From positions 2,128 through 66,127 of the forward strand of contig JAFXQR010000072.1 of NCBI GenBank assembly GCA_017526985.1: a stretch of 64,000 nucleotides of DNA, written 5' to 3'. A program made the translations under genes and the position numbers. The DNA is from Lachnospiraceae bacterium. GTDB taxonomy: Bacteria; Bacillota; Clostridia; Lachnospirales; Lachnospiraceae. Under the pieces are notes generated by a model. The model did no database searches. It was not told where the DNA came from and saw only the letters and a program-made list of their open reading frames with translations. Below, in pieces: positions 3,247 through 53,681 of the stretch (positions are counted from its first letter, which is position 1; every line of letters begins with the position of its first letter).

Positions 3247-3269
3247 AAACAAGGGGAAGACAAGGTGCA

Positions 3270-9041: not shown

Positions 9042-9053
9042 TCCTTTGGAATC

Positions 9054-9236: not shown

Positions 9237-9481
9237 TTTGTCTTCCTCCTGTCCTGACAGTAGATAATGAAAAGATAATTAAGCCCCCCGACCGTGCCAT
9301 TATATCACCGCTGCCGCCTTTTCACAATCGCCGCCGGCGCCCCGGCAGATCACATGATAGGTTGCTCCGGGATACCATATCCTCTTTTTTCTTGCCATTG
9401 CGTTCCCTTCTGTATAATATTATGTGTTTTTATATAAATACTATTTCATTTTTACGAATATTGAGACAAAAGAAAAGCCTG

Positions 9482-27875: not shown

Positions 27876-30800
27876 TTACTTCCTGGATACGATCTGGCTG
27901 TTCAGATCCGGCAGCTTCTCTTCTTTTTTTACATTTTGAGCACTCTGGGCACTCGGCTGACGGTTGCGTCTCTTTTCGTCCGGACGCTTTATGCTTTCTT
28001 TTTCCATCAGTGTGTTCAGATCCAGCTGCTTGCTCTTTCTTCTGACATTGTTGGCCTGCTGCTCAAAGATCTTTGCCGTTTCCGGATCGATGATATTGAG
28101 TGCCGCCAGTACATTTTCCTTACGGACATTACCGTTTCTATGCCATGCCGTATCCATACCTACATGATTTAAGTATCCGGTCAGGGCATCCTTCAGATCC
28201 TTGGTGTTTTCCTTGGAGAAATCAATGTTCTTATCCGTATCCCCTGTAAATTTCTGAAGCTGGTCGATCACTTTGCCGTATTCCGTCGTATTATCATGTC
28301 CGGTATAACCGTTCTTGGTATCCGTCAGGTTGTCCAGCAGATCCTGCAGCTGCTCCATCTTCGGATCGTTCTTTTCGTGCAATGTACGCAGCCGGTCCGC
28401 TTCTCTCTCCCTTTCTTCCGCAAGCCTTCTCTCATTTGCCTCACGCTGTGCGTTTTCTTCTTCCCGGCGTCTCCGTTCTTCCTGCTGCTGCTTCAGGGCT
28501 TCCTGCTGACGCGCATTCTCTTCCTGCTGTGCTTTGAGTGCATCGGCCTTCTTTTGCTTTTCGGCAGCGATCAGATCATCCAGCTTCTTCTGGGCATCCT
28601 CCACCTTTTTGTCCACATCTTCCTGCTCTTTTTCCTTCTTGCGCAGATCCTCCTCGGCGGCCTTCATCTTTTCTTCGGTCTCTTTCATAGCGCCTTCGGT
28701 ATACTGGATGGATTCCTGCTGGTTCGTGACAATGTCCGATTCGCTCTTGGCTGCCACTTCAATAAAAGCTTTATCGAGTGCTTTTTCCGGCTCTTTCTTA
28801 AAGATTTCTTTAAATTCATTGTATTCCCAGTCCGCGTTGATCTTGATACCGCGCTGTGTGGTCAGATCGTTCTCATACTCTTCTGCGATGTCCTTGATCT
28901 TGGTAGAGAGCGTATCCGTGACTTCCCGCATACTCTGCGTGATCGCGATGATATTGTCAACGATACCCGGCTCGTCTTCCTTCGGCTCACCTTCGCCCAT
29001 CATACCCTTACGGACATCGGCAGCCTTCTTTTTCATATCCGAGATCTTTTCTGCGATACCCTTTTCTTCCTCATCCTCGTTCTGATCCCCGGAACCGCCT
29101 TTTCCGTTGATAAAGCCTTTGACACTTCCGTACAGCTTGTATATGGTCTCCGCTGCAGATACTACAGTCTCTACGCGCCCCATATTCTTCGGCGTAAACA
29201 GACCTTTGAGGGCATTGCTGTATTTTTCGATATCCTTTGCATCGTTTTCAAGTTCTTTTTCTGCAGCTTTCAGCTTGACCTGCTCTTTGATCACCTGCCT
29301 CTGTGCCGCATCCACCTCGGTATAGGCCGGAGAGGTGAGCAGATCCACGATGTCCTTTCCATTTTCCAGATCTTCCGCAATCTGCTTGGTAGCCTGATGT
29401 GCGGCTGCTTCATTGACACCGGTCTTGATATCGATCTTTTTGGCTTCCGCCTCAAAATCGATATGATAGGAATCCTTCAGTTTCTGATGCAGTTCCTCCA
29501 GTTGCTTCTTTTCTTCTACACGCGCGCCTGCCAGATCCTCCTGCATCTTCTCGATCTCTTTACCGATCTCGTCACGTTCTTTATGAATGTCCTTGGCGCG
29601 TCTTTCATCATCCGCCGCATCGGCCAGCAGCGGCTGATAGAGCGGACTGTTCTTGCCACGCATCTGCGCCTCTTTGACATGCTGCAGCTGTGTCCGGCCT
29701 TTTGCCAGCGCGGTCTCTCCTTTCAGACGGTAAGCATCTTCCTTTTCGGACAGCTCATCTTCCATCTGCTTTACCTTGCCCTTTACGACCGATTCGGATA
29801 CGGTAAGCGTCAGCTTATCCATAAATCCCTTGGAAAAATCTGCGGCGGAATCAGCAATACCAACGAAGAAACTCTTCACAGCAGCTTTGCGGATCGCACT
29901 TCCGGCTGCATCGGCCGCCTCCTTTTTTTGTTTCAGGAAGTCTTCATTCTTTTGTTTTTGCGTCTTCTTATCGTCGTCCTGAAGTTTTTTCGCTTCATCC
30001 ATTTTTGCCATCAGATTATCCTGGTGCAACTTCAGCTGGCTTTTCTTAAGATCCAGGATCTCCTGGTTCATCTGATGCGATCCCCGTCGGATCTCGTACT
30101 CTTTCCTTGCGGCATTTGTGACATCCTTCATTTCATCGGAACGAGCCTTGGCCGCATTCAATTCCTCACGGGCAGCCTGAATCTCCGGTGTATCCTCGAT
30201 CTCGGCTTCCTGTTTTGCTTTTTCCTGTAATTCTTTCTCTTCCTTTTCCAGTTGTTTCTTGCGCTCTGCCTCTTCAAATTCCAGCAGTTTGCCCATATCC
30301 TCCAGCACCTTATCGCGTGAGGCTTTTGTGTTTTCCACACGGTTGGTCTGCATGTCAATGGCACGCTGGTTCGCATCCAGATCCGCGTGGATCATAGTCT
30401 TGTGCAGATTCTGCTGCTCGGTCAATTCCTTCTGCGCACGCTCTACGATGGATTCCTCCGCATTCAGCTCTGCCTGCTTGAGGAAGTTCTTTTCCGTTTC
30501 TTCTCTGGCCTGTGCTTCTTCGAGGGAATGCTGCATGCTCACGGTCATATCATTCAGCTTCTGGGAAACGATCTGTACGATCTGTCCGGCTTCCTGTGCC
30601 AGCTCTGTGATGTTCCCGATAATGGTCTCTTTGTCTTCCGCGCCTTCCCCTTTTCCGGAGATCGCATTATTGATGGCTTCCGCTTTATCCCGCAGATCCT
30701 GGATCGTGTCCTTGATATTCAGTTCAAAGTTATCTTCATCTTCTTCGGCATCCGCTTCATCCCCGTCCTTTTTGTCCTCTTCCTTTTCGTCCTTTTTGTC

Positions 30801-33065
30801 TTCTTTTTTATCCTCTTCTTCTTTTTTGTCTTCTGCCGCCTGACCGTCCAAAAATTCGGATACCGTGCTGTATGCGGAATATAGCTTCTCCGCGATGCTG
30901 ACGATGGTATCCACCTTTCCGAGATTATCCGGAGTGAGATAGCTGCTCAGCTCGGTGCTGATCTTTTGCATATTTGCCATCTGCTCCTTCAAAGCCTTGC
31001 TGTCATTGAGGATCTTTGTTTCTTCCTTGTTCAGCTCGATCTTACGGGTCTCTGTCTTGGCAGTCATCAGATCCTGCAGCAGCTCCTGGGACATACCACC
31101 GGGATTCGCCGTCGGAAGGTTCTGCTTTGCCGCATTGATATCCGCAGCCAGACCGGTCATATAGTTTTCCGCACTTTCGATCTCGTTCTTTTTCAGCGCC
31201 TTCTCATTGTCACTGAGTTTCTTACCGCTGATATTTTCTTCGATCTCCTTCAGCTTTTCTGCTTCTTTTTTCTTTGCCTCTTCCAGCTCTTTTTTCTTTT
31301 CTTCAACCTTTTTTGTTAACTCTTCATATTTTTTATATGCCTTGGTAGCATTCGTCTGATGTTGATCCGCCTTGTTGATCTTGCCGGCAAATTCTTTATC
31401 GATCTGCGCATTCTGCTGCTGCAAATGCTTTTTGGCATCCTGAATACTGCGGACCTTATTGTACATGTTGGAGGAAAGAGCCGTTGCCTGCGTATTTTTC
31501 TTCTGCTGCAGTGCTTCCAGTTCCTTTTCTACCTGGACTCTCTCTCCTTTTACAATACCTTCAGCCGCGATCACACCGGCCTTCTGGATCGTATCACCGA
31601 TGGAAGAAGACAGATTGGCTGCAAACCCGACCAGGGTGGAACCGATCATCATCTTTCTTCTCTTCTTGGTAGCCTCTGCCGCTTTTTGCTCGACTGCCTT
31701 CTTATACTGTGCGTCACAAGCCTTCTGATCCTTCCACTTGTCCGCTTCTTTCTTTTTCTGCTCCTCAATTTTATTGTTATCTTTGATCTGTGTATTTTCT
31801 TTTGTGATGGCGTTGTTAATGCCCTCTCTCTGGATCAGGCGCTTGCACTGCAGAGACTTATAATACGGAAAGATGACCTTGTTCCGTTCCGACTGTACCT
31901 CGATCCTGTCCGCAATATAGTCATAAGAAGGATCGTACTGCTCGGACAGTGTCTTCAGTTCCTGATATTTATCCATTAACTTGCCGTCTTTAAAATAATC
32001 ACCTATCTTGGTGCTGGAATGATCCTTTATCCATTTTTTCTGATCCGAATTACCGTTTTTTGCGATACGCTCCGCATAATCATTTACCTGCTTTTCAACG
32101 GCATAGTAATCATTCAAAATGTTCATGACCTTATTGGGATCATCATAACCGATCTCAGACAATTCTTTACTTCCTTTTACAGAAGCAGTCGCAAGATTAT
32201 AAAGCAGATTAGTACTCTTTTCGTCAAACTTAGCCTGCTGTTTCGGATCATTCTTATAACCGTCCAGTTCTGCAAAGCTCTTCACAGTATTTTTGGGCAT
32301 ACCAACCTGCTTGATCACCTGTTTCAGCATCATACGCTTTGCGACCATCGACTGATAGACTTCAAATTCCTTGTTATTATCTCCGCCTTCCGGATACAGC
32401 CGCTCATATCTCTGCTGCTGTTCCTGATATTTCTTTGTGTTGGCGTCTAATTCACGAAAACCTTCGACGATCGAAAAATCTGCCGATTTGGTATCTGTCG
32501 TATTTTTGAACCATTTCCACTCTTCCGCTGTCAGGGATTTTCCCTCATCCGCTTTGATATCCGCACGCAGTTTATCGATCTCTGAGGTCAGCTTCTCGTA
32601 CTCATCAATGCCGCTCAGAGTCATCTTTGTCTCATTCAGTTTATAGTCCTTTGCATCGGTTTCCTTTTTTTCGGCTATCACCTTATCCAGATATATGCGG
32701 GTCGTTTCCATCTTCTGCGGATCCTTGATCTTATTCAGATCTTCGATCGTCTCCGGCAACAGATCCTGAATATTTATAGTGACCGCCTGGCGTTTTTTAT
32801 AATCATAATTGTTGATCTCATTCTGGCGTTTTTCCAGCAGTTCATTTTGGGAAGAATTATAGGACTGCAGCTCTACCTGTCTCTTTTTCAACAGATCGAG
32901 CACCTGCTCCTGTTTATCAAGTTCATCCTGCGCCGCATCCAGATGCTTCTGCAGGTCGACTTTGTTTTGCGCAGGCTGCTGAGGCGCCTGATTCACTTCC
33001 TGCGGCTGCGGATTGTTGTTCACTTCCTGCGGGTTGTTCTGATTATTGTTTCCGTCGTTCGGCAT
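27876..33065 (-). CDS. Giant (1729 aa) highly charged K/E-rich coiled-coil protein of unknown function with an internal ~580-aa duplication
   Basis: One uninterrupted ORF. AGGAGG RBS 7 nt before the ATG at 33065 (MPNDGNNNQ...). I see no signal peptide and no enzymatic motif. Confidence 0.8.
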   Translation of the reverse strand: MPNDGNNNQNNPQEVNNNPQPQEVNQAPQQPAQNKVDLQKHLDAAQDELDKQEQVLDLLKKRQVELQSYNSSQNELLEKRQNEINNYDYKKRQAVTINIQDLLPETIEDLNKIKDPQKMETTRIYLDKVIAEKKETDAKDYKLNETKMTLSGIDEYEKLTSEIDKLRADIKADEGKSLTAEEWKWFKNTTDTKSADFSIVEGFRELDANTKKYQEQQQRYERLYPEGGDNNKEFEVYQSMVAKRMMLKQVIKQVGMPKNTVKSFAELDGYKNDPKQQAKFDEKSTNLLYNLATASVKGSKELSEIGYDDPNKVMNILNDYYAVEKQVNDYAERIAKNGNSDQKKWIKDHSSTKIGDYFKDGKLMDKYQELKTLSEQYDPSYDYIADRIEVQSERNKVIFPYYKSLQCKRLIQREGINNAITKENTQIKDNNKIEEQKKKEADKWKDQKACDAQYKKAVEQKAAEATKKRRKMMIGSTLVGFAANLSSSIGDTIQKAGVIAAEGIVKGERVQVEKELEALQQKKNTQATALSSNMYNKVRSIQDAKKHLQQQNAQIDKEFAGKINKADQHQTNATKAYKKYEELTKKVEEKKKELEEAKKKEAEKLKEIEENISGKKLSDNEKALKKNEIESAENYMTGLAADINAAKQNLPTANPGGMSQELLQDLMTAKTETRKIELNKEETKILNDSKALKEQMANMQKISTELSSYLTPDNLGKVDTIVSIAEKLYSAYSTVSEFLDGQAAEDKKEEEDKKEDKKDEKEEDKKDGDEADAEEDEDNFELNIKDTIQDLRDKAEAINNAISGKGEGAEDKETIIGNITELAQEAGQIVQIVSQKLNDMTVSMQHSLEEAQAREETEKNFLKQAELNAEESIVERAQKELTEQQNLHKTMIHADLDANQRAIDMQTNRVENTKASRDKVLEDMGKLLEFEEAERKKQLEKEEKELQEKAKQEAEIEDTPEIQAAREELNAAKARSDEMKDVTNAARKEYEIRRGSHQMNQEILDLKKSQLKLHQDNLMAKMDEAKKLQDDDKKTQKQKNEDFLKQKKEAADAAGSAIRKAAVKSFFVGIADSAADFSKGFMDKLTLTVSESVVKGKVKQMEDELSEKEDAYRLKGETALAKGRTQLQHVKEAQMRGKNSPLYQPLLADAADDERRAKDIHKERDEIGKEIEKMQEDLAGARVEEKKQLEELHQKLKDSYHIDFEAEAKKIDIKTGVNEAAAHQATKQIAEDLENGKDIVDLLTSPAYTEVDAAQRQVIKEQVKLKAAEKELENDAKDIEKYSNALKGLFTPKNMGRVETVVSAAETIYKLYGSVKGFINGKGGSGDQNEDEEEKGIAEKISDMKKKAADVRKGMMGEGEPKEDEPGIVDNIIAITQSMREVTDTLSTKIKDIAEEYENDLTTQRGIKINADWEYNEFKEIFKKEPEKALDKAFIEVAAKSESDIVTNQQESIQYTEGAMKETEEKMKAAEEDLRKKEKEQEDVDKKVEDAQKKLDDLIAAEKQKKADALKAQQEENARQQEALKQQQEERRRREEENAQREANERRLAEEREREADRLRTLHEKNDPKMEQLQDLLDNLTDTKNGYTGHDNTTEYGKVIDQLQKFTGDTDKNIDFSKENTKDLKDALTGYLNHVGMDTAWHRNGNVRKENVLAALNIIDPETAKIFEQQANNVRRKSKQLDLNTLMEKESIKRPDEKRRNRQPSAQSAQNVKKEEKLPDLNSQIVSRK

Positions 33066-33286
33066 AATCGATTTCCTCCTTATACATGGTCTGAATCTGT
33101 CGTTTTCTGTTTCTGTTGAATCCACTATAGCAACCTAAGTGCAAGAAAAGTGCAAGCATTTCGGCTATTTTTGAAAAATATAAAAATTTTTTGAGCCATG
33201 GTTGACATATGCAGATCGTCTGTTATAATTATTTTGATAATATGAGTGTCAAGTGTTACCGCCAACAGCCAAAGGAGGGCAGAACT

Positions 33287-41311: not shown

Positions 41312-41403
41312 GTGGAGCTCCTTTCTGTGGTTATCTTTTGCAATGGTTATGTGATTTGTTCATAAAAATCTTCTTCATAACAAATCATCTGCCTATGTAT
41401 GAC

Positions 41404-41445
41404 AGTATATAACCTCAATAACAATTTCCGTATTTTTTACGGAAG
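41404..41445 (-). promoter_or_regulatory. Shared promoter architecture, copy 4: CTTCCGT-AAAAAAT-ACGGAAA, N15, TATACT (gene orientation)
   Basis: Read directly from the sequence; same layout as 53732, 58690 and 61928. Confidence 0.6.
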
Positions 41446-41691: not shown

Positions 41692-43830
41692 CTATAATTC
41701 GTCCAATAGATTACGCTGACTATCCCATATTAATTCTCTCATCTTTTTTATTTCTGGTATCTTTGAGATATAAGCATGTGCACTATTATTCCGCATTTCT
41801 GTAATTGTCCTAATCAAGGGCGCATACTTTTTTAACTTTCCTGTATAATTCCTGATAATATAACCAGCCGAGCCAAGAGATCTGCAATGATCTTTAAGCT
41901 GTTCATTTTTTGCTTCTCTATATTCCTCTGATTTTTCAAGATAGTTCCATATGCTTTCCTCATATACCCGTGCATACTCAACCAAAACCGGAGCACAATC
42001 TATCATGTCATTCTCTTTAAATACATTGTATATCTGCTCCGCCGATGCCAGGTATTTTAAGGCTTTATCTGTCAAATTCGGATATCTGTCTGATGCTTTT
42101 TTCAGTTCTTTCTTAAATCCTTCTTGATCTTTTGTTTGAACAACCTTTTGTATCTTCGAAATAACAGAATTCATTTTATCTTTTATCGATGTTGTTTCCC
42201 ACATTTCATCTGTTATTTCTATACACTCATCAATAATCTGACTTGATACTAAGTCGTTATACCACTGATTTTGAACTTCAACCATCCTTCTAATCTTATT
42301 TTCACGATCTTCCAGTTGCTTCTGTATTATATTTTTTTCTTTTCCGGCTTGTAGTCCTATCTTATATAGTTTTTCCTGCTCTTGAATAGATACAAGAACT
42401 GCATTCTTCTCCTGTGCTTCTTTCATCTGTGAATATTTTTCATATACACAATAGGCCTCTGCATACAAATCCATCATTTTGAGTGTTTCTATCATCTTTA
42501 AATATAATTCCTTCAACACAATCCTTGATGGTCTTTTTAATGAAGGAAGAAATAATGGCCCCTGAAACTTTTCATTCTTTTTTATATCTTTTTCGACCGT
42601 TTCTATAGCCCATTCATATACATCTTTGGCTTTATCATATTTCTTCTGATTCAAAAATATCGCCCCAAGAGCTTGCATTTTAAACGCATCCGGACGAATC
42701 GCTATTGATGCAATACCAGCTTGTTCTGCCTTTTCAAACTCTCTTCTCTGTTCCCATATTCTAGACATCGCATATAATATAAGATCATTATCTGCGGATA
42801 TTGTTTTCGAATACTGGCATGCCTCTTCTATTTCATACATCTCAATCAATGCAATCAGTCTTAGCGCCTGATATTCATATTTGAGTTCTTGCGGGCTATT
42901 TTCATATTCCATAAGATGATTATCTTTTGCATCATCTAACCTTTTCAGAGTTCTTTTTAGTTCTCCATGATCTCCAGAAAACATTATTGCACTTAGTTTC
43001 TCACAGGCGAGAAAGAAATAATTATAGAAATTTGTATTTTTTATCGTCACATATTCAAAAAGTGACTCATACAGGAGTATTGTTCTTGAAATATTGTTTT
43101 CCACAAATGTAGTTGCATAAGTGAGCAATTCCGTGTAATTGTATGATTTTTTATTTTCTAGAAACAACTCATAGTACCGCTCAAATTCATCCGGATTCTT
43201 ATATATCTCTATCTTAAATAGTTCTATTAATCTTTCTTCAAAATACACATCTCCCAATTCCGAACCAACAAACCAGTTATTATTTGCCTCCCACGGTTTA
43301 TACGATCTTTCTGCCATAAATTTCATATTGTGCTTTGCTTTTATCCGACATGCTTCCCATACATTTTTGCACAATATAAATGTACACAAAAGCACCTGCC
43401 AGGCGCCCGTCTTGGATCTTATCTCCAATTCTCGACTACTGATTTGGCAGTTATCCGATTTCTCAGCAAATTTTATCGCTTTACTAAATTCATCTATCTT
43501 ATACCTGCTCCCAGCGTGTTTCTTTATCGCAACATTAAAATTAGCCACTGCCAAAAGTGAATATGTTGCTGGCTGTAATGTCTCATCGTCTTCCCAGCAT
43601 GCAATACTGCAAATTTCCATCAAACATATCTCAGCCTCCCGATATTTCTTTTCAGATAAATAAGCAAACGCCGCATCATAGAGCAGATCCGATTTATTCA
43701 AATCATTTCCGGTTAATAATTCCTTATTAATCTTTCCCTTGGCGTTTATCATATCACCGCCAACTCTCTTTTTTGATATGATTGGAATCATCGATTCAAA
43801 ATTATTCAATATTTCGGAATAATTATCCAT
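41692..43830 (-). CDS. Large helical-repeat (TPR-like) protein with a C-terminal HEPN-type Rx4H motif
   Basis: EMRNNSAH at 41776-41793 fits the HEPN RNxxxH signature. Repeat-rich helical N-terminal 500 aa. The start (ATG 43830 or GTG 43839) abuts or overlaps the upstream stop. Confidence 0.55.
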   Translation of the reverse strand: MDNYSEILNNFESMIPIISKKRVGGDMINAKGKINKELLTGNDLNKSDLLYDAAFAYLSEKKYREAEICLMEICSIACWEDDETLQPATYSLLAVANFNVAIKKHAGSRYKIDEFSKAIKFAEKSDNCQISSRELEIRSKTGAWQVLLCTFILCKNVWEACRIKAKHNMKFMAERSYKPWEANNNWFVGSELGDVYFEERLIELFKIEIYKNPDEFERYYELFLENKKSYNYTELLTYATTFVENNISRTILLYESLFEYVTIKNTNFYNYFFLACEKLSAIMFSGDHGELKRTLKRLDDAKDNHLMEYENSPQELKYEYQALRLIALIEMYEIEEACQYSKTISADNDLILYAMSRIWEQRREFEKAEQAGIASIAIRPDAFKMQALGAIFLNQKKYDKAKDVYEWAIETVEKDIKKNEKFQGPLFLPSLKRPSRIVLKELYLKMIETLKMMDLYAEAYCVYEKYSQMKEAQEKNAVLVSIQEQEKLYKIGLQAGKEKNIIQKQLEDRENKIRRMVEVQNQWYNDLVSSQIIDECIEITDEMWETTSIKDKMNSVISKIQKVVQTKDQEGFKKELKKASDRYPNLTDKALKYLASAEQIYNVFKENDMIDCAPVLVEYARVYEESIWNYLEKSEEYREAKNEQLKDHCRSLGSAGYIIRNYTGKLKKYAPLIRTITEMRNNSAHAYISKIPEIKKMRELIWDSQRNLLDEL

Positions 43831-43835
43831 ACAAA

Positions 43836-44822
43836 TCACCCATCTTTCCGGTCCGGCATTAACATATCAAACATCGAAATCTGTTGGTCATACTGTACCA
43901 AGCGTTTCTGATCCGTAGCATCTTTCACCTCTTCCCCCGGATTGATCGTATCACAAAGTATCGGAGATTTCGGATCATATTTCGCCATAGACTTTTTAAC
44001 ACTTTCCGGGCTATAGTTTGCATAACAATAAATACACCCGTTACTGCAGGTATTGTGACAGCCGATTTCTTTACTGGGCATACATTTGCAATCATTTCTT
44101 TGCGCTGCATCTTTCAGATTCTTCTTCGTATCCTTGATCTTTCCACCGGTAAGTCTTTCCACCAGCGCCTTATCGATGCAAGCATTATGGTCAATCCCCA
44201 AATCTTCCAGATCGATCTTTTCGGCACATGTAGCCACTTTCATATTGTTTGCACCGGCGATCTCTCTTATCCGGATTGCCATATCCCGCATCTCTTCATC
44301 TGAAGGATAATATATTCCCATATCGTCCAAGGTCTTCTTTATCTTAAAATAATCATCCACGAAACTGAATACACATTTTTCCGTATATCCTTTCAGACAA
44401 CCTGCGATCTCTTCAAATGCTCTGTAATGCCAATCAAGCGGATATCGATTATTGATCATGATAGGATCATATCTCCAGATCACTCGCTCCGGTCCTATCT
44501 TATCCGCAAGTTGCTGAAATGCCGGAATCAGCACTTTTTTCTTATCCGGTAGATTTCGCTCTATATCTTTTCCATATCCGGTTAAGGTAAACTGAAAATA
44601 ATAACAATAGTCTTTCAATTCATCCAGCCTGGGGATCAACGGCACCGGATTCTTCGTCCAGAAAACAATGCAATCTACCAGTTCCGGATCCAAAGAGATC
44701 CTGGATAACTGTTTTGCATTCATCGGATTACGCACTACGGCATAGCCTTCTTTGACTCTGTTTAGGAACCATTCTGTAAAATATGCAGGTATATCCGTCC
44801 TGCGACTGGCACTGATGATCAT
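43836..44822 (-). CDS. DUF1848-like protein with a C-terminal Cys cluster
   Basis: N-terminus MIISASRRTDIPAYFTEWFLNR...VFWTKNP...WRYDP and C-terminus CKCMPSKEIGCHNTCSNGCIYCYAN match my recollection of PF08902. AGGAG RBS before the ATG at 44822. Confidence 0.6.
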   Translation of the reverse strand: MIISASRRTDIPAYFTEWFLNRVKEGYAVVRNPMNAKQLSRISLDPELVDCIVFWTKNPVPLIPRLDELKDYCYYFQFTLTGYGKDIERNLPDKKKVLIPAFQQLADKIGPERVIWRYDPIMINNRYPLDWHYRAFEEIAGCLKGYTEKCVFSFVDDYFKIKKTLDDMGIYYPSDEEMRDMAIRIREIAGANNMKVATCAEKIDLEDLGIDHNACIDKALVERLTGGKIKDTKKNLKDAAQRNDCKCMPSKEIGCHNTCSNGCIYCYANYSPESVKKSMAKYDPKSPILCDTINPGEEVKDATDQKRLVQYDQQISMFDMLMPDRKDG

Positions 44823-44845
44823 TATCTCTTCTCCTATCGTATAGT

Positions 44846-45877
44846 TTATCGATGAATCAATTTTATTATTTGAAATAAGCTTGTTGTTGCTCGCGTAACA
44901 CATTTTCGCTGTTTACATGCATGCAATATGCTACTCAAACTATCTCTCACCTCAGATATTTCTCTTTCAACTTCAAAATCATTGTTCAGTTCCTCTATTC
45001 TTGGACAATTAAAAAAACTTCCTTGTTGTATTTTTTTAAATGCATAGCATGGCCAATACTCCTCATCTGCTATATTCTTCAAAGGTCCATCTTCTCCGAT
45101 ATATTCATCCGAAAGATCATTCTCTACTAGAAATCTATTATCATAGTTAATAGCCTCCACAATACGCTGAGCGATAGTTTTCATTGTCTGTTTTTCTCTA
45201 TACTGGCTATGCGAATGTGAAATAATTATATGATGATCTCTATCCGCTTGTATGGCATCAGCATTATTTCTTATCATTTCAACCAGCCGGTTTAAATATA
45301 TATCCGGAAGTTCATTCAAGATTTTAGGAAAAATAATAGTATTATAGCTGCATATCCATTTTGTATTTTCAATAAAATCAAGTATATCTGAAACGCCTTG
45401 TGGAAAATCATCTCTTCCTGGATATCTCATCCCCAGGTAGCCGTTTCCAAATGTGTATGCTCTTTCCATTGCATTATCGTTATTCGGAGAAAACTGTATC
45501 CCCCATCTTACCATATCCATCCCAACATATCTTAAAGATAATTCTGGATTCACCTGGTTTTTAGCGTATGCTAACGCCCATGCATCAATACAAGAACCAC
45601 ACCCCAAAGAAGTAACACCAAAAATATTTTGTAGCGGATCATAATCATCTATAACCATTTTGTATAGAAAAGCATATTCAAAAGCATACGCATACCCATA
45701 TCTCAATAAATATACTGCATTAAACAATTCATCATCATAATGAAAATCTTCTTCTTGAGCATTTCGATAATTAATACCAAGAACAGTTTGCAGTTCTTCA
45801 TCCGGCTCTTGATTTCTAATATGTTCTCTCACTATACTAGCACAATTTCTCATCACTTCATTGAAATATTCAATCAT
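44846..45877 (-). CDS. Hypothetical protein, possible class I SAM-dependent methyltransferase fold
   Basis: Motif I-like VTSLGCGSCID followed about 25 aa later by a motif II-like RYVGMDM; GGGAGA RBS. Confidence 0.4.
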   Translation of the reverse strand: MIEYFNEVMRNCASIVREHIRNQEPDEELQTVLGINYRNAQEEDFHYDDELFNAVYLLRYGYAYAFEYAFLYKMVIDDYDPLQNIFGVTSLGCGSCIDAWALAYAKNQVNPELSLRYVGMDMVRWGIQFSPNNDNAMERAYTFGNGYLGMRYPGRDDFPQGVSDILDFIENTKWICSYNTIIFPKILNELPDIYLNRLVEMIRNNADAIQADRDHHIIISHSHSQYREKQTMKTIAQRIVEAINYDNRFLVENDLSDEYIGEDGPLKNIADEEYWPCYAFKKIQQGSFFNCPRIEELNNDFEVEREISEVRDSLSSILHACKQRKCVTRATTSLFQIIKLIHR

Positions 45878-46234
45878 CTTTTTTCTCCCTTCTTGATTAC
45901 CCTTTATGATCTAATAGTTTATACTCTTTTTTCTGCTCCCTATAACATTCCTTCTGCCTATAAACCATATAAAAATCTTTATATTTCTGTCTTTAAGATG
46001 GTTTTCATCAAGAAAAATATATTTAATGAATTCAGATATGCCTCTATACAAAATATCTGTGTTCTATTTGTCATTAGACTATATCAAAACAGATAAGGTC
46101 TTTATTAATCTCTTATTCCGATTATCATTTCTTTTCGCATATATTATATCATCTTCTATATAAATACATCAAATGACATATTCACCAAAAAGGCCACAAC
46201 AATATTATAAACAATAACAATCACCTCAAATCTT

Positions 46235-46726
46235 TTATATAAACTTCTCCCGATTCAGGTTGCACTCGTGACAAACCACGCAGGCGTTTTCCCATATCCT
46301 AGGTTTCTCTGGATCTTTGCGACGCAATACTCCTTCCTGCAGATCACATCCACACCCGACACATTTCCCGTTCTGCTTCCGGATCAGTTGTTGCTTCTGA
46401 TACGCATAATTCTCCAGTTCCTTACAGATCCCTTCTTCGACAAACTTCAGTTTCTTCTTATGGTCCGGAGCTAAATGGAGCTTGTCCAACTCCGGCAGCA
46501 TATCTTCTTTTATCGTATTGCATTCCGGATGGGTTCGGACATAATTGTCTTTTGACTCGATATGATCCACCAGCTGTTTTTGCTCAACCGCAGACAGATA
46601 TTCTTCTGACCATTTGTATATCGCTCTCGGATAAACATGATCTCTGTTGGAACTCCCTTCGATACTCTTCCCGCATATGGCACAGATCTGCTGCTTTCTC
46701 TTATTCAATTCATTCATCTGACTCAT
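46235..46726 (-). CDS. HNH endonuclease
   Basis: CAICG...DHVYPRAIY...HPECNTIKED plus a second CxxC...CxxC pair; GGAGGTG RBS. Confidence 0.8.
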   Translation of the reverse strand: MSQMNELNKRKQQICAICGKSIEGSSNRDHVYPRAIYKWSEEYLSAVEQKQLVDHIESKDNYVRTHPECNTIKEDMLPELDKLHLAPDHKKKLKFVEEGICKELENYAYQKQQLIRKQNGKCVGCGCDLQEGVLRRKDPEKPRIWENACVVCHECNLNREKFI

Positions 46727-46805: not shown

Positions 46806-47564
46806 TCAAAACGAAACCGCTCTTACCCCGGTAAGCGACTCCAGACTCACAGATAGCAAAAAATTATGCAGAAACATATCAACAAGCTCCATGGATGTGA
46901 AGCAAACATGCTCAATATCATCATAGCAACCATTATGCATGTATTTCAATACCTCACCGCAGGACAAATGCCCGGTATCCCGGATATACTCGCCATCCTT
47001 CCCGGGAAAAGCACAGAAACTGATCACTTCATGTCCAAGCCGCACGATATTATGCGTATCGCACATCGGCAATTGATCGGCCTTATGGAATCCGACACTT
47101 CCAGCCTCTTTATCCAGCCACCGATTCAGATACGAACCCTTCTGACCTGCCATCACGCTGTTGTGGTATACGATATACTCACCGCTTCCGATCACATCCA
47201 GGTTGATCGTAAGTTTTGGACGATACTTGGAAAAGTGCATTGTGCTTCCGTAAAACCCGCTCTCTTCCCTGTCCAGAAAAACAAAACAGACATTAGGATC
47301 ACCGGCCCGCTCCTCACACAGATGCAACAACACAGCGCAGGAAGAACCATTATCATTGGCTCCGCATGATCCCGGCACAATATCATAGTGTGCACAGATC
47401 GTCACCAGCGCGTTTTTCGGATCACCAACCATCAGGTTGACCGCATTTTCATTCCGCTCGATCCTGTAAAAAATGCGCTTTCTTGCAAGTATGCGTCTGA
47501 TCTGTTTCCGACGCTCTTCTGTCGTACAATAGGAGATCTCCATTAATGATTCTTTTAAATCCAT
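46806..47564 (-). CDS. M28-family metallopeptidase-like protein (short, 252 aa)
   Basis: Zn-ligand pattern AHYD...ANDNGSS...DREESGFYGS...NLDVIG...MHNGCYD; GGAGGT RBS. Confidence 0.6.
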   Translation of the reverse strand: MDLKESLMEISYCTTEERRKQIRRILARKRIFYRIERNENAVNLMVGDPKNALVTICAHYDIVPGSCGANDNGSSCAVLLHLCEERAGDPNVCFVFLDREESGFYGSTMHFSKYRPKLTINLDVIGSGEYIVYHNSVMAGQKGSYLNRWLDKEAGSVGFHKADQLPMCDTHNIVRLGHEVISFCAFPGKDGEYIRDTGHLSCGEVLKYMHNGCYDDIEHVCFTSMELVDMFLHNFLLSVSLESLTGVRAVSF

Positions 47565-47895: not shown

Positions 47896-48978
47896 TTATT
47901 TAATCATTTTTGCTCTTTGTAACACTGCTTCCTTATTCAATACCTTCTTATTGGCAAACATATTTTGCGGTTTCCCGGATGCCTTCTGCAGTTTCCCGAT
48001 CCCCTTCGATTTTCGTTCCTCAAAGTATGCCCGATACTCTGTAAAGCTTTTTTCTCTCCGGACATTCTCTAACTGCGTTTCCGTTATAAACTTCTTATTA
48101 TACTTCGCATAGCAATCCGTAAAATAACCGTTCTTTACCGTATTTTCAAACTCCCGTAGCGCCTGTTCAACCGTTTGAAATATTTTGATCCTTGTTTCCA
48201 GTATATTATCATACTCCGGCGCTTTATCAGATAATTCATACTTTTTTGAAGCATTATCTTCATCCAGCATAAAATCCTGCAGGTCAGCTAAAGTATGGTA
48301 TAGGACACAGGCATAGCACTGATCCCTGTTTTCCGGATCAATACTGCCTCCCACGATCCTCTGTACACTATCACTTATGCGATCGGTTCCGATCAGATAC
48401 ACTCCCGCTCCGGTTTTCGGATCAATACGCAATGGAATAAAACATGAGCTGAGTTTCATTGCATAAATTCCCTGATACAGATCATCCATACGGTCGATCT
48501 CTTCTTCGGTAACATTCCGTCCGGTTGGCACTCTGGCTGTATCATCTCCTGCAACACCTCCGTCTGCCGAACCGCCCAGATTCCTCACCAGGGTATTTAA
48601 TAATTCAATATCATCGATATTCTTTTTTTCTTTTTGCTCGATGGCAGCTCTTTTCTTTTCTGCTTCTTCTCTCTTTTTCTCTTCCGCCTCCCGATCCTTC
48701 CTGTCTTGGGGATCCTTTCGTTTTCCGGAAGCTTCTTCCTGCAAGCGCTTTTTTTCGCGCTTACGCCGCAAAACCCCGTGACGCCGCAAAAAGTCATCGA
48801 CCACTTCTTCTGTCACATAGTCTGCTGTTTTTCCCTTTTTCTCATAGTAACTGCACAAACACACATACAGAATACTCTCTTCACGCTTATTCTTAGCACT
48901 CTTTTCCGTATACTCTTCTTCCAGAAACGAGTACATTTCCCTTTGGTTTTTTATTTCTATCCCGTTTGGCAAGATCAT
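47896..48978 (-). CDS. Hypothetical protein (360 aa) with a central K/E/R-rich segment
   Basis: ATGA start/stop overlap with the upstream gene; no motif recognised. Confidence 0.6.
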   Translation of the reverse strand: MILPNGIEIKNQREMYSFLEEEYTEKSAKNKREESILYVCLCSYYEKKGKTADYVTEEVVDDFLRRHGVLRRKREKKRLQEEASGKRKDPQDRKDREAEEKKREEAEKKRAAIEQKEKKNIDDIELLNTLVRNLGGSADGGVAGDDTARVPTGRNVTEEEIDRMDDLYQGIYAMKLSSCFIPLRIDPKTGAGVYLIGTDRISDSVQRIVGGSIDPENRDQCYACVLYHTLADLQDFMLDEDNASKKYELSDKAPEYDNILETRIKIFQTVEQALREFENTVKNGYFTDCYAKYNKKFITETQLENVRREKSFTEYRAYFEERKSKGIGKLQKASGKPQNMFANKKVLNKEAVLQRAKMIK

Positions 48979-50540
48979 GCAAGAGTCCTCGCTTTCTTTA
49001 CCTGACGCGCTACCAGTTCCGGCGTACGTTCCAGCTGGTACAGCACAAAACCGTAACCCATACCCGTCGATGCTGCAGAGATACCTTTTTCATACAGATA
49101 CACTTCCATCATCCATGAAAAATCTTCCTTAAGCTGCGCCCGCTCATTCAGATGTTTGCTATACTCCAGGCGGAAACGATGATACGCCTGCACCAGACGC
49201 TCCTGCATCACTTCCGGCAGAGTCTCTTTCCATCCTCGCACCGCAACTTCCATGGCTTTGATGCCTTTCTCTTCCGCCTCAAGCATATCATCAAACTGAC
49301 GCGCTGCCTCATTTTCATCAAAGTCATCTGCATACGCCTCTACAAAATTCGAGTAGTCCTCATCTTCCTGTGTCGGTATATACTCCTCCACCTCAGCAGC
49401 CATATCCAGATACTGCGCATCCTCTGCACTCACTCCGCGGATCGCAGCGGCATCTTCGTCACGCCCCAGCCATTCCAATGCTCTGGCGTAAAGCATATCC
49501 TCAAAGCTTTTGAATTTTCTCCGCTCCACCATCTCATCGGTATAATCTTCCCGCAGTTGACTTTCCAGTGAAGGCGTCTCCTGCACATCTTTTGTATTTG
49601 CACGCGCACGGATCATCCGGTCTGCCAGCGCGATCACTTCTTCCCTGGAAAGATCCTTGTCTTGCCCTTCCAGAAATGCCGTTTGATATTCCATATAGCT
49701 GTCTTTGTCTGCAAACCCGCAGTTTTTCAGATACTCCTCCACATCCGAATAACCTGCCCACTTCGCCCGTTCCTTCAGGCCTTCCTCCGTGTTCGCATAC
49801 ATCTGCGGACCGATCTTCAGCTCCTTTGCAATATTTTTGTCACTATAGCGTTTCAGCCATTCATCGGCAGGATTTCTGTCCGATTGCAGCAGATTCCAAT
49901 AACTCTGTTTCCATTTTTCCCGCACATCCTCCGGCAGTGCTGCGATCCCTTCATAATCCGGCAGGAAGCTGCGGTCGTTCTTTAACCAGAACAGTGACAA
50001 GCTCATATAACGGAAAAAGGATCGATAATCCGAGCCACCCCACTTCAGTCCGGCTGCTTTATCATCATCTCCCATTTCCTGCAGCAGCAAGCTTTCCGGA
50101 TCCACACAGGCAAATGCCATACGCATCACATCCATCAGATCCTGATAGGTTTCATTATTATGGGGTGCCCAGCTGGCGTTCTCCATAGGATCTTCTTCAT
50201 CTACCGTACAGCAATCTGCTCCGCGGGAATTCAAAAACTCTGTCCGCACCGGCGACGCCCCCACCAGCAGACAATACAAAAAATCCGCATAGAATTGCCT
50301 CATTTCTTCACTGAGCTCTCTTTTTTCCGAGGTCAGATAACGCTTCATCGCATCCAGCATCTTCGAGATCATCGCATCCACTTTCTGTTCAACGAGAACG
50401 CCATTCTCATCCGTGATCTCCTTTAAATACCCATGCTCACACCCCAACGCTGCATTGCGGATCGCATCGAGGCGCTCCGTTAATTGTGCCCTGCGCTCAC
50501 GTATCCGATCCATCTCTGTATCCTCCATTCTTTTGCTCAT
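48975..50540 (-). CDS. Hypothetical acidic protein (521 aa)
   Basis: GGGGAGG RBS; starts 27 nt after the DprA-like gene; no motif recognised. Confidence 0.6.
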   Translation of the reverse strand: MSKRMEDTEMDRIRERRAQLTERLDAIRNAALGCEHGYLKEITDENGVLVEQKVDAMISKMLDAMKRYLTSEKRELSEEMRQFYADFLYCLLVGASPVRTEFLNSRGADCCTVDEEDPMENASWAPHNNETYQDLMDVMRMAFACVDPESLLLQEMGDDDKAAGLKWGGSDYRSFFRYMSLSLFWLKNDRSFLPDYEGIAALPEDVREKWKQSYWNLLQSDRNPADEWLKRYSDKNIAKELKIGPQMYANTEEGLKERAKWAGYSDVEEYLKNCGFADKDSYMEYQTAFLEGQDKDLSREEVIALADRMIRARANTKDVQETPSLESQLREDYTDEMVERRKFKSFEDMLYARALEWLGRDEDAAAIRGVSAEDAQYLDMAAEVEEYIPTQEDEDYSNFVEAYADDFDENEAARQFDDMLEAEEKGIKAMEVAVRGWKETLPEVMQERLVQAYHRFRLEYSKHLNERAQLKEDFSWMMEVYLYEKGISAASTGMGYGFVLYQLERTPELVARQVKKARTLA

Positions 50541-50567: not shown

Positions 50568-51584
50568 TTATTCCTCTGACGAGTCTCCCTGTTTCATCAG
50601 ATCCTCAAACGACATCTGACTGAATTCTTTTTCCTCTGTCTTCTTTTCTTCTGTCGGCACAGTCTCTGCTGCTTTCTTTTCCGGCATCTTTCCGTCATCC
50701 AGCAGCGGGATAGCTCCTCTGCGGATCAGTTCCTGATTACCTGGATAGTTTTTATTATCCCACACAAAGACCGTAGTCCATCTGTGCTTCAGTGCTTCCG
50801 TCGCACCGCTCCATGTACCGCCCTTATTCAGATCCGAGCGCACCACCACCGTGGCTTTTGACTGTGCATAAATATACTTATTGCGTTCCATCGCAGATGC
50901 CACAAAAGAATGCCTGCTTTTGGCTGCAAGCGGAGATACATGACTATACATCAACAGTCTTTGATCAAAGACCGCTTCCCGAAGCAGCGCGTCCCCCATT
51001 CTTTGTTTCATGGTATCCGGAAAATAGACGATCGCGCTCCCACCATGTTTCAGGCACCGGAGTAATGCCACACTATCAATCCCCTGCGCGCCCCCGGTCA
51101 CAATGCCAAATCCTTTTTTCAGATTTTCATCCACGCGCTCTTCCGTCCAGGCGATATCTTCATTTCCGATATCTCTGGATCCCACATACCCGGCCATTTT
51201 CTGCTGATTGATCTGTCTGCTGCCGACCGTATATAACAACGGCGGACAAAAATCCCCCAGCTTCTCTAACAATGCCTGAGGAAAATCCTCATCCAGTACT
51301 GTACTGATCCTTACACCCATCTGCTCCAATTTTTCTTTTCCAAAGGCAATGGATGCGCTGCGCTTCAACAACTCTTCTATCTTTTCTTCCTGCGCCGCGA
51401 TCAATTCGTCCATCGAATCATTATATTTATGATAAAGCTTCCAGAACTCCGCACGGGTCAGTGGTGTATTCCCATCCGCAAATTCCCCGCAAAGGATTAT
51501 GATATATTCTGAATTCATATCCATTTTGACTCTCTCTTTCATGGGCAAAGGGGACTCACAAAAACTGCAGATCCCGTATGCCAT
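50568..51584 (-). CDS. DprA/Smf-like (SLOG-fold) protein with a C-terminal acidic tail
   Basis: GYVGSRD...GFGIVTGGAQGIDSVALL...ERNKYIYAQSKATVVVRSDLNKGGTWSGATEAL parallels the DprA Rossmann core. Confidence 0.7.
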   Translation of the reverse strand: MAYGICSFCESPLPMKERVKMDMNSEYIIILCGEFADGNTPLTRAEFWKLYHKYNDSMDELIAAQEEKIEELLKRSASIAFGKEKLEQMGVRISTVLDEDFPQALLEKLGDFCPPLLYTVGSRQINQQKMAGYVGSRDIGNEDIAWTEERVDENLKKGFGIVTGGAQGIDSVALLRCLKHGGSAIVYFPDTMKQRMGDALLREAVFDQRLLMYSHVSPLAAKSRHSFVASAMERNKYIYAQSKATVVVRSDLNKGGTWSGATEALKHRWTTVFVWDNKNYPGNQELIRRGAIPLLDDGKMPEKKAAETVPTEEKKTEEKEFSQMSFEDLMKQGDSSEE

Positions 51585-51608
51585 TTTTTCTTTGTCTATT
51601 TTACACGA

Positions 51609-53681
51609 TCAATCGTCACCTGTCATGCTGCTGTCTGCCAGACAGAAAGGGAACACTTTCTGCGCCCCATGCTTTAACAGATACCAGCCGCCTACAGTCA
51701 GTGTCCACCCGGAATCAACCATATCATCTACCAGGATCACATTTTCCGGAACGATCACACCATCCTTGATCTGCATAGAATTCTTTACATTATCGAACTG
51801 ATGAAAGCTGTTGTTCAACGTTTTCTGCTGCGGTGCATCCGGATCCGTTTTTTTCAGAGTATCCAGATACTCCATCCCAAGGCCCTCCGCCAGCTTTCTT
51901 GCAAAATTCTCTACCTTTTTATTCCTTGCAGAAGGAATATTGGTCACTGCCGTATAGCCCTGATCCGCCAGTTTCTCTTTTAGTACTGCGATGGATTTCT
52001 GTACCAGTTCATCACGGAATTCAGCTTCGTGGTACTTATCGTGAGCAACCATTTCACCATAGCCTGCCTGACCATATTTGGACAAAGCCAGACCGGTCTC
52101 ATTCAATGCAGAGATCACGGTATTTCGATCCAGACCATTCTCCGCCACCGGCCAGCGCTTCTTCGGCTCGATCTCAAGATATCTTGCACCGATCATCTGC
52201 TCTACCTGTGCGATATCCTCCGCAGTAGGTTTCACCACCGGATCGAAAATTTCTTTCTGCAGGCAATTCGCACATTTTCCGCAAGGCTTAGCGGTATCAT
52301 CATTCAGACAATTCACGATGAATTTGCTCAGACATTCTTTTGTATGGATATACTGTTTCATCGTGTCCAGTTCGGCATACTTCATCTTCTTAATGTTATC
52401 ATAGTGCTCACCGTTGTAATGATACGGGTTCATGGATCTCTTATACTTGGAACCATCCTTATAGATCACATCCTGGTTCATCAGCATATTCAATACTCTT
52501 TCCATATCCGTTCTTCGTATATCACAAAGACGCATCATATCGTTGACGGAGAGCCCTTCTGCTGTTTGTTCCAGAGCATCGATGATCTTGCGCTCCTCTT
52601 CCTCCGTCGGAAACGCGTGCTCGATAAAATAGGTTGAGATCTTATCGTCTTCTTCGCCCGTCATCATATAGCAATATGCTTCCATACCCTCTTTTCTTCC
52701 GGCACGACCGATCTGCTGATAGTACGCCACGACGGAAGACGGCTTCTGATAGTGGATGACAAAACCGATGTCCGACTTATCATAGCCCATTCCTAATTTC
52801 ACTGTAGCTACGATCACCTTGATCTTGTTCGCGTTGAACAGTCTTTCGGTCTCTCTCAGTGTCTCTTCGTTCTCGCTATCGGAATAATAACGACGGGCAC
52901 TGATCCCGTTTTCCATCAGATAGTCCGTGATCAGATCACAGTCTCTTCTGGTAAGACAGTATACGATACCGGTCCCCGGCAGTTTCGGGATGTTCTCCTT
53001 CATCCATGCGTAGCGCTCCACCTGCGAATTCATCTTCAGAATTTCAATGTGCAGACTGTCACGACTCAACGGACCTCTGGATACAAAAACATTGTCCCCA
53101 AACTGCTTCTTCAGATCTTCGATCACGCGATCATTCGCCGTAGCAGTAGTCCCCAAAACAGCCACATTTTCCGGCATTTGAGCGATCACACGGTTTAATT
53201 TGGAATACTGCAGGCGGAAATCGTGCCCCCAATCCGAGATACAATGACACTCATCGATCACCAATAAACGGATCGGCAGTTGCGGAAGCATACTCTGCAC
53301 TTCTTCTTTCTGCAGAGTTTCCGGTGTGGTAAAGACGACATCATATTCCTGATTTTTAAGCTTTTCAAAAAATTCGGTTCTGGCCTCATCCTTGACGGAA
53401 CTGTTGATCACACCACATTTCAGATGGAACTTTTCGGCATACTCCATCTGGTTGTCCATCAGAACCAACAAGGGACTGATGATCAGGGTAACACCGCCCA
53501 GGATTTTGGATGCCACAAAATACACCAGCGATTTGCCCCAGCCGGTCTTTTGCACCACCAACGTTCGCTTATTGGATAAGGTGGCTTCGATGGCCTCATA
53601 CTGCCCTTCAAAAAAGCCGGCATTCTCTCCATAAGCTTCTTTCATCACCTGCATTGCCTTGTTAAAGATTTCCTGGTTCAT
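51609..53681 (-). CDS. RecQ-family helicase fused to a C-terminal ComF-like phosphoribosyltransferase (PRTase) domain
   Basis: QKTGWGKS (motif I), VIDECHCISDWGHDFR (DExH), RecQ Zn motif CGKCANC, PRTase motif VILVDDMVDSGWTLTV; AAGGAGG RBS. Confidence 0.85.
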   Translation of the reverse strand: MNQEIFNKAMQVMKEAYGENAGFFEGQYEAIEATLSNKRTLVVQKTGWGKSLVYFVASKILGGVTLIISPLLVLMDNQMEYAEKFHLKCGVINSSVKDEARTEFFEKLKNQEYDVVFTTPETLQKEEVQSMLPQLPIRLLVIDECHCISDWGHDFRLQYSKLNRVIAQMPENVAVLGTTATANDRVIEDLKKQFGDNVFVSRGPLSRDSLHIEILKMNSQVERYAWMKENIPKLPGTGIVYCLTRRDCDLITDYLMENGISARRYYSDSENEETLRETERLFNANKIKVIVATVKLGMGYDKSDIGFVIHYQKPSSVVAYYQQIGRAGRKEGMEAYCYMMTGEEDDKISTYFIEHAFPTEEEERKIIDALEQTAEGLSVNDMMRLCDIRRTDMERVLNMLMNQDVIYKDGSKYKRSMNPYHYNGEHYDNIKKMKYAELDTMKQYIHTKECLSKFIVNCLNDDTAKPCGKCANCLQKEIFDPVVKPTAEDIAQVEQMIGARYLEIEPKKRWPVAENGLDRNTVISALNETGLALSKYGQAGYGEMVAHDKYHEAEFRDELVQKSIAVLKEKLADQGYTAVTNIPSARNKKVENFARKLAEGLGMEYLDTLKKTDPDAPQQKTLNNSFHQFDNVKNSMQIKDGVIVPENVILVDDMVDSGWTLTVGGWYLLKHGAQKVFPFCLADSSMTGDD

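Follow-up and report, generated by a model that had tools for sequence, protein, structure and literature searches.

In the literature, the DUF1848 family is known only through its association with UG25, a reverse-transcriptase group whose methylase-reverse transcriptase fusions are accompanied by a DUF1848 gene (Mestre et al., 2022; PMC9226505). HEPN genes have been described within restriction-modification (R-M) operons (PrrC and RloC with EcoprrI-type systems, as well as DUF4145, AbiJ and Ymh), along with HEPN families fused to TPR repeats (Anantharaman et al., 2013; PMC3710099). DUF4145 counts there among the accepted divergent HEPN families, and in RAZR, an abortive-infection RNase, catalysis falls to a HEPN domain of the DUF4145 type (PMC13017515). 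The locus analysed here brings a DUF1848 gene and a HEPN-like gene together. It lies in a stretch of 64,000 nucleotides (nt) from a Lachnospiraceae bacterium (assembly GCA_017526985.1, contig JAFXQR010000072.1, positions 2,128 to 66,127), referred to as the window throughout. Three minus-strand genes, named A (343 amino acids, aa), B (328 aa) and C (712 aa), follow one another in the order A, B, C within one AT-rich block; their coordinates and those of all other features are collected in Table 1.

The trio is read here as a composite defence-island operon in which two separable modules, the A-B pair and gene C, would have been acquired together as one AT-rich block; a probability of about 0.45 is assigned to this reading. 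The guanine-plus-cytosine (GC) content amounts to 0.336 in A, 0.42 in B and 0.343 in C, against 0.445-0.54 in the flanking genes and 0.476 over the window, and the strict AT-rich block (~41.3-46.2 kb) holds only the three genes and their flanks. A and B are spaced by 23 nt. At the B-C junction, a GTG start of gene C overlaps the stop codon of B (4-nt overlap) and an ATG start lies 5 nt past it; the ATG is taken as the start because the homologue alignments begin there. A Shine-Dalgarno-like sequence stands ahead of each gene (GGGAG at 8-9 nt upstream of the A start, AGGAG upstream of the B start). Since homologues exist elsewhere for all three, A, B and C are real genes and not chance open reading frames (ORFs). 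A longer ORF for gene B (355 aa, from 44903, overlapping A) was considered and rejected, as the homologues all begin with MIISASR.

The 357 nt of non-coding DNA 5' of gene A (45878-46234) have a GC content of 26.6% and contain a promoter-like site, the count of such sites not exceeding the shuffled expectation in the consensus scan. In the same scan, two terminator-like hairpins were located ~250 nt 3' of the C stop, and no intergenic terminator-like site was present between A, B and C. Edges of a mobile element were looked for around the block as meaningful flanking direct or inverted repeats, a tRNA gene or an Rfam match, and none of these was found. Their shared base composition and translational coupling suggest that, at this locus, A, B and C move and are expressed as a group. 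The gene layout, spacings and ribosome-binding sites of a first-pass annotation of the same letters were thus reproduced, as were the motifs it quoted: VTSLGCGSCID and RYVGMDM in A; SRRTDIPAY, VFWTKNP, WRYDP and the cysteine cluster in B; EMRNNSAH in C.

Beyond the window, it is the A-B pair that recurs. An iteratively widened profile search gave an A family of 57 members, and with this profile an A-family ORF was found to adjoin B in 51 non-redundant loci, mostly with gaps of -4 to +31 nt and in 48 of the 51 with A preceding B. Among the loci retrieved with A, B is adjacent in all distinct cases except two, one lacking B (L013) and one in which the contig ends at A (L007). The conserved unit is the A-B pair and the trio is not one; the relationship is asymmetric, as A nearly always implies B and the reverse does not hold. 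The object of interest is the uncharacterised A-B pair with its interchangeable partners and not the trio.

Gene A belongs to an unannotated family. Pfam, NCBIfam, PADLOC and PHROGs returned no family at E<=0.01, sequence and profile searches of the PDB gave nothing significant, and word-sharing relatives number 14 among 5.8 billion proteins. The AlphaFold2 model (predicted local distance difference test, pLDDT, 88.5; predicted template-modelling score 0.90) adopts the class I S-adenosylmethionine (SAM) methyltransferase fold. In a Foldseek search of the PDB, its top matches are all class I methyltransferases with S-adenosylhomocysteine (SAH) or SAM (best E=3e-5), and the 26 matches at E<=1e-3 are almost all SAH/SAM-bound methyltransferases, with template-modelling scores of just 0.3-0.46. 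Small-molecule methyltransferases provide the best structural matches (those of presqualene- and farnesyl-diphosphate, PSPP/FPP, and of histamine and plantazolicin, together with EgtD). Across the 57 family members, G92, C93, G94 and the Y117-x-G119-x-D121 segment are conserved in 49-53, the remainder being mostly gapped there; W125, F183 and E189 are likewise conserved. SAM binding by gene A is likely, since motif I and the acidic residue of strand 2 are conserved across the family. A-family genes were searched for in viral contigs and none was found.

Gene B is an unambiguous member of DUF1848. The match to PF08902 covers model positions 1-262 of 262 (E=9.6e-105; 350.5 bits against a cut-off of 30.5 bits), and in PADLOC it matches RTasDUF1848, the model for the DUF1848 protein that accompanies defence-associated reverse transcriptases (E=6.7e-48). 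The family numbers at least 8000 proteins at E<1e-10. Nine cysteines (C51, C199, C215, C245, C247, C259, C263, C266 and C290) are invariant in sets of 9 and of 36 homologues, and three of them form a CX3CxYC motif of the radical-SAM type; the signature of that superfamily is CX3CX2C, the last Cys being usually preceded by an aromatic residue. This motif occupies residues 259-266 of 328, near the C-terminus, as against its position after the first strand at the N-terminus in radical SAM enzymes; membership of gene B in that superfamily would therefore need a circular permutation.

The AlphaFold2 model of B (pLDDT 88.1) shows strands and helices alternating in a barrel. Its Foldseek matches are all weak: the search against the PDB retrieves generic TIM barrels at ~1e-3 and also the radical SAM enzymes CteB and Elp3, the superposition with Elp3 reaching a probability of 1.0 over ~190 columns at a root-mean-square deviation of 5.2-5.4; against viral models, many of the named matches are radical SAM or iron-sulphur (Fe-S) oxidoreductases. 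The native sequence yields a weak Radical_SAM_2 match at residues 256-283 (E=0.0046) and, in the PDB, 9cg2 at E=0.12. When residues 241-305 were placed before residues 1-236 in silico for 14 members, PF04055 was matched in 7 of the 14 (best 4e-4) and Radical_SAM_2 in 12, a modest gain that is still sub-threshold. By hhalign, the cluster motif comes closest to a COG1533-like radical SAM protein, with a probability of just 38%. Gene B is thus plausibly a permuted radical-SAM-like Fe-S enzyme; such a topology would be unusual among radical SAM enzymes.

Gene C had nothing usable from Pfam, NCBIfam, PADLOC or PHROGs and only three word-sharing relatives. Its profile retrieved 96 matches among 1.84 billion representatives, of which ~70 are genuine and the others concern the TPR region only. 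Some 570 residues of TPR-type repeats precede the HEPN-like domain; TPR_1 is matched in 39 of 71 family members (best 3.5e-17), which bears out the TPR-like repeats proposed earlier, although the protein of the window itself stays below the threshold. The most conserved part of the protein is the last ~140 residues, where a putative catalytic Rx4H motif stands near the C-terminus of essentially all genuine members. Within the 71-member family, R680 and A684 are invariant, and H685, D611, E618, E624 and G653 are conserved at 90% or above. The sub-threshold matches of the C-terminal domain in 33 members are nearly all to HEPN models: DUF4145 in 8 (best 4.8e-4), RiboL-PSP in 2, Cthe2314 in 2 and LA2681, MAE_28990, Swt1, pEK499_p136 and Abi_2 in one each. 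The only relevant PDB match is the HEPN defence protein HepS (E=0.8), aligned on RNxxAH. The domain likely belongs to the HEPN superfamily; the HEPN call of the first-pass annotation was put too firmly, being borne by the motif, with its invariant arginine and near-invariant histidine, and by consistent but sub-threshold matches.

Relatives of gene C occur in HicA/DarT islands and prophage contigs, some with an N-terminal SEC-C zinc motif. Each follows a tightly linked upstream gene (5-62 nt) of varying identity, and all-against-all BLAST and profile searches revealed no shared upstream partner, these genes being unlike each other, A or B. In the relative of closest context (L001), the gene just upstream (710-3538, plus strand) encodes a 942-aa helical protein that ends in RRNHAAH, again an Rx4H motif, and has no match to the HEPN profile of the C family; the two may be a tandem HEPN-like pair. 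The same island also carries HicA, DarT and an integrase.

The partners of A-B elsewhere give the pair its defence-type setting, as had been proposed from the window alone: neighbours and fusions look like defence or mobile-element genes. Six loci encode a ~1100-aa protein of which the A domain is the C-terminal third and which also has a superfamily 1 (SF1) helicase and a DUF2726/MTES_1575-type nuclease-fold domain of the PD-(D/E)xK kind; the helicase region (AAA_11/AAA_12) matches MkoA/MkoC of PADLOC at ~1e-40. A homologue of the type I subunit HsdR (L054, 1999-6942, plus strand; E=2e-31 to EcoR124 HsdR) ends 3 nt ahead of an A-like gene that abuts DUF1848, which makes this A-B cassette an appendage of an operon resembling type I R-M. 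In L074 a RecD-like helicase is encoded upstream, and the directly neighbouring genes include those for STAND NTPases (L009 and L013) and a KAP NTPase (L012). In L014, a helicase-nuclease-A fusion is followed by a gene (8491-9720, plus strand) for a 409-aa protein that starts 4 nt inside the DUF1848 stop codon and bears a C-terminal DarT (single-stranded DNA ADP-ribosyltransferase) domain. Further neighbours of A-B include type IV secretion system (T4SS) coupling proteins, MobA/MobL relaxases, serine recombinases, transposases and a SWI2/SNF2-HsdR-type protein. The fusion of the A domain to SF1 helicase and nuclease, together with the methylase-reverse transcriptase fusion of UG25, points to nucleic-acid substrates for A-B. 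The pair appears as a self-contained cassette of mobile elements and defence islands, the domain content of which points to SAM-dependent chemistry on nucleic acids.

Several further DUF1848 genes were observed in other surroundings. A common gut-bacterial DUF1848, 67% identical to B, is found on 22 contigs without A (L027-L029, 5301-6933, plus strand); immediately ahead of it are genes for a LytTR response regulator and a histidine-kinase-like protein, and RlaP and RelB/ParE genes are close by. On a plasmid of Roseburia sp. 831b (L145; NZ_CP135163.1, 3322-6371, plus strand), a distant DUF1848 is closely preceded by genes for a macro-type protein-ADP-ribose hydrolase and a SIR2-family protein, with a Phd/YefM antitoxin after it and no A-like gene at the locus. 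One distant DUF1848 lies near AlkB and another between a flavodoxin gene and a non-specific endonuclease. A homologue with 38% identity occurs at 319196-319948 in a 735-kb 'uncultured phage' record (LR756501.1 / LR756503.1), and of the 32 IMG/VR contigs that carry DUF1848 relatives, roughly one in four has an A-like gene next to the relative.

On the composite reading, the first module would be a translationally coupled cassette of A, a SAM-binding protein of the class I methyltransferase fold, and B, an Fe-S radical-SAM-like TIM barrel with the cluster-binding loop shifted to the C-terminus through circular permutation. The two proteins would act jointly on nucleic acid, most likely by installing or processing a base modification, and would supply a defence system with its modification or self-marking side. 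The second module, gene C, would be a TPR sensor joined to a HEPN RNase of the abortive-infection type, latent until the helical repeats meet a trigger; once triggered, it would cut RNA through a composite Rx4H active site made by dimerisation. Gene C occupies the position held in related loci by the SF1-helicase-nuclease fusion, by type I HsdR or, from the literature, by the UG25 reverse transcriptase, and may act as the effector of A-B or as a PrrC-like fail-safe on the same transcript.

A number of results weigh against this composite reading. No C relative was found near A-B in the 51 non-redundant loci, and neither A nor B was found near C-family genes in six distinct loci, three of which are prophage-type contigs. 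The inference of the first-pass annotation that the three genes form one system is not supported by these counts, a lack of conservation as a unit being one of the outcomes that the annotation itself had named as refutation. The coupling of A-B with C at this locus may be mere adjacency, and most stand-alone A-B cassettes are without a conserved third gene or visible effector; in a Pfam scan of 80 immediate neighbours, no family beside A-B occurred in more than two. An A-like neighbour is present in just ~30% of the sampled DUF1848 loci with adequate flanks. Some DUF1848 genes stand solo in ordinary chromosomal settings, and the genes upstream of such solo loci are unrelated (a Cwp19-like cell-wall protein and an insertion-sequence integrase). 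As regards the proteins, gene A is devoid of the (D/N/S)PP(Y/F/W) motif of DNA amino-methyltransferases, its own sequence reading F-P-K-I-L-N-E-L after strand 4 and the alignment showing no DPPY-type motif, and the structures closest to it are methyltransferases that act on small molecules or proteins. Profile searches of the PDB with B were empty in both the native and the permuted form, and its kinship with radical SAM enzymes is sub-threshold in all sequence tests. No HEPN model reaches the Pfam threshold for C, neither A nor C has a PADLOC match, and the defence prediction for UG25 was graded inconclusive (Mestre et al., 2022; PMC9226505).

A tighter proposal, that one integrated trio uses A-B to modify or sense nucleic acid and thereby control the HEPN RNase C, which would be inactive on self or activated on infection, is improbable. 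The arrangement in the window speaks for it: the stop codon of B runs into or abuts the start of C, a single promoter-like site precedes the block, terminator-like sites occur only at the end, and A and C are equally low in GC. C-family genes always trail a tightly linked, variable upstream gene, so that A-B may fill the partner slot here; furthermore, R-M proteins guarding a HEPN nuclease of the PrrC type offer an established precedent (PMC3710099). Nevertheless, C is accompanied by A or B in no other locus, the upstream partners of its relatives have no detectable similarity to each other, A or B, and A-B cassettes stand alone in most loci. The comparative loci lend no support to a functional coupling of A-B with C.

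A second alternative removes defence from the pair altogether. A-B could be a repair or housekeeping pair for RNA or DNA modification (for example, a spore photoproduct lyase-like protein with a methyltransferase), with C as an unrelated abortive-infection or toxin neighbour. The size of DUF1848 and its many solo members in ordinary contexts would fit such a role, as would the DUF1848 genes near AlkB or beside flavodoxin and endonuclease genes, the COG1533-type cluster motif of B and the lack of an effector gene in most A-B cassettes. The distribution of A-B is, however, patchy and its neighbours are variable, often being conjugation, recombinase or transposase genes; A is fused to helicase-nuclease proteins with a Mokosh-like helicase; HsdR, STAND, KAP and DarT genes adjoin the pair; and the block in the window is compositionally foreign. 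This explanation is consequently considered unlikely.

Far less credence is given to A-B as a toxin-antidote or reversible-modification pair of the DarT/DarG kind, in which one protein places a toxic DNA or RNA mark and the other removes it. The cassette is translationally coupled, self-contained and borne on mobile elements, and DUF1848 is found beside modifying or reversing enzymes (the DarT-domain protein of L014, macro with SIR2 and Phd on the Roseburia plasmid, and AlkB), but the case is purely contextual, neither A nor B resembles a known toxin or antitoxin family in the family scans, and B often occurs without A. Finally, radical SAM and methyltransferase pairs are typical of small-molecule biosynthetic pathways, and the best structural matches of A are small-molecule methyltransferases, yet production of a small molecule or modified nucleotide by A-B (viperin-like antiviral or natural-product tailoring) instead of polymer modification is very unlikely given the fusion of A to SF1 helicase and nuclease, the UG25 fusion of methylase to reverse transcriptase and the absence of biosynthetic cluster genes nearby.

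Returning to the composite reading, its relevance lies mostly in DUF1848, a very large family without an assigned function that appears in defence databases only as the accessory of one untested reverse-transcriptase group. A subset of its genes is tied to a dedicated partner of the SAM-methyltransferase fold, and this pair turns up repeatedly on mobile elements and beside several different defence-type partners. The resulting hypothesis for DUF1848 is Fe-S and SAM chemistry on nucleic acids that would serve immunity or competition between mobile elements. A bolder form of the proposal, held to be doubtful, treats A-B as an unrecognised modification module, in which a permuted radical SAM DUF1848 and a SAM-binding partner mark DNA or RNA and are plugged into interchangeable effectors; if true, A-B with its TPR-HEPN, SF1 helicase-nuclease, HsdR and UG25 reverse transcriptase effectors would constitute a new R-M-like class of immunity based on radical chemistry. 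Gene C, in turn, brings a rare TPR-HEPN family into the set of candidate abortive-infection RNases. Should none of these proposals hold, the locus would be no more than the usual side-by-side placement of two unrelated gene sets in a defence island.

Table 1. Features of the A-B-C locus and of its surroundings, in window coordinates (position 1 is the first letter of the window).
Feature	Position	Strand	Description
Gene A	44846..45877	minus	ATG 45877, TAA 44846-44848; 343 aa; class I SAM-methyltransferase-fold protein, unannotated family
Gene A motif I, G92-C93-G94	45596-45604	minus	Conserved SAM-binding motif
Gene A motif II, D121	45515-45517	minus	Within Y117-x-G119-x-D121; acidic residue, end of strand 2
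Gene B	43836..44822	minus	ATG 44822, TGA 43836-43838; 328 aa; DUF1848, TIM-barrel-like alpha/beta core, C-terminal Cys cluster
Gene B CX3CxYC motif, C259-S-N-G-C263-I-Y265-C266	44025..44048	minus	Radical-SAM-type; invariant in both 9 and 36 homologues
Gene C	41692..43830	minus	ATG 43830, stop 41692-41694; 712 aa; TPR-type helical protein, C-terminal HEPN-like domain
Gene C alternative start	GTG 43839	minus	715 aa
Gene C best TPR-like repeat, residues 385-415	42586..42678	minus	TPR_12, 22.5 bits against a 30.1-bit cut-off, below threshold
Gene C HEPN-like C-terminal domain, ~residues 575-712	41695..42108	minus	Consensus FLxTAExLY..IDFAPxxVEYCKVxE...TLG...RNxSAH
Gene C Rx4H motif, R680-N-N-S-A-H685	41776..41793	minus	Putative catalytic motif
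Promoter-like site	46143..46172	minus	TTGATG-18-TATAAT with upstream TG; in the 357-nt gap 5' of A; consensus scan
Two terminator-like hairpins	41389..41444	minus	3' of the C stop; consensus scan
163-aa Cys-rich protein	46235-46726	minus	Weak HNH / endonuclease VII matches
M28-peptidase-like protein	46806-47564	minus	Short, 252 aa; E=4e-17
Two charged proteins	47896-50540	minus	Unannotated; 360 and 521 aa
DprA-like gene and helicase-phosphoribosyltransferase fusion	50568-53681	minus	RecQ/DEAD-type helicase; fusion ComFA/ComFC-like
T4SS coupling protein	57226-58647	minus	T4SS-DNA_transf, TraG-D_C
1749-aa ORF	27876-33125	minus	AT skew of the surrounding stretch strongly negative (-0.26 to -0.42)

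Among the surrounding genes, the 163-aa protein directly upstream of the operon has weak matches to Pfam HNH (0.0025), the PHROG endonuclease VII (4.5e-5) and an NCBIfam retron-type HNH (0.066), and may be a further defence or mobile-element gene; the M28-peptidase-like gene comes next. Weak relatives of the 360-aa charged protein (E ~1e-6 to 1e-5) lie ~3.4 kb downstream of A-B in two other loci (L004 and L005). The DprA-like gene beside the helicase fusion looks like competence or DNA-processing machinery, outside the AT-rich block. The T4SS coupling protein, the family of which is also found among the neighbours of A-B elsewhere, suggests a conjugative-element remnant in the region.

Compared with the systems described so far, the locus shares parts with several. 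For HEPN-MNT toxin-antitoxin systems, no nucleotidyltransferase match was obtained in the locus. The likeness to HEPN genes embedded in R-M operons consists of a HEPN-type gene C, with a DUF4145-like signature, that is co-transcribed with a putative modification module, and the mechanism of C would likewise be that of a latent suicide RNase backing a DNA-level system. It differs from PrrC and RloC in that C has no ABC-ATPase and the locus is devoid of canonical genes for methylase, specificity and restriction subunits. Scans of A, B and C with Pfam, NCBIfam, PADLOC and PHROGs detected neither a nuclease domain nor a recognised DNA methyltransferase, nuclease and helicase partners of A-B occurring only in related loci.

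With the single-protein HEPN defences (RAZR, PMC13017515; DARNA, bioRxiv 10.64898/2026.02.22.705581; HepS, PMC13043305; LA2681-like TPR-fused HEPN), gene C shares the combination of a HEPN-like domain, bearing Rx4H, with a large sensor region made of helices or repeats, as well as the occurrence of its relatives on prophages and mobile islands; RAZR combines a zinc finger with DUF4145, and some C relatives carry the SEC-C zinc motif. None of these proteins, however, is matched significantly by the sequence of C, and the HEPN domain is N-terminal in DARNA and C-terminal in gene C. The kinship with Mokosh (MkoA/MkoC) concerns the SF1 helicase region of the six A-fusion loci, where a PD-(D/E)xK nuclease domain replaces the PLD nuclease and the A domain and a DUF1848 partner are added; the A-B-C locus of the window has no helicase. 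The radical SAM enzymes that act on nucleic acids (spore photoproduct lyase / COG1533 'DNA repair photolyase' and Elp3) resemble B in the CX3CxYC motif, in an alpha/beta barrel that fold searches liken to radical SAM cores and in the nucleic-acid contexts, and differ from it in that the motif of B is C-terminal, the similarity is sub-threshold and six extra cysteines are invariant.

As regards the UG and Abi reverse transcriptases, no reverse-transcriptase domain is present in A, B, C or the neighbouring genes. A is likened to the UG25 methylase by domain type alone and has no PADLOC match of its own, the third gene here encodes a TPR-HEPN protein, and UG25 itself is without an experimental function. 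What the locus shares with UG25 is a methyltransferase-type domain together with a separate DUF1848 partner, gene B matching the PADLOC model RTasDUF1848.

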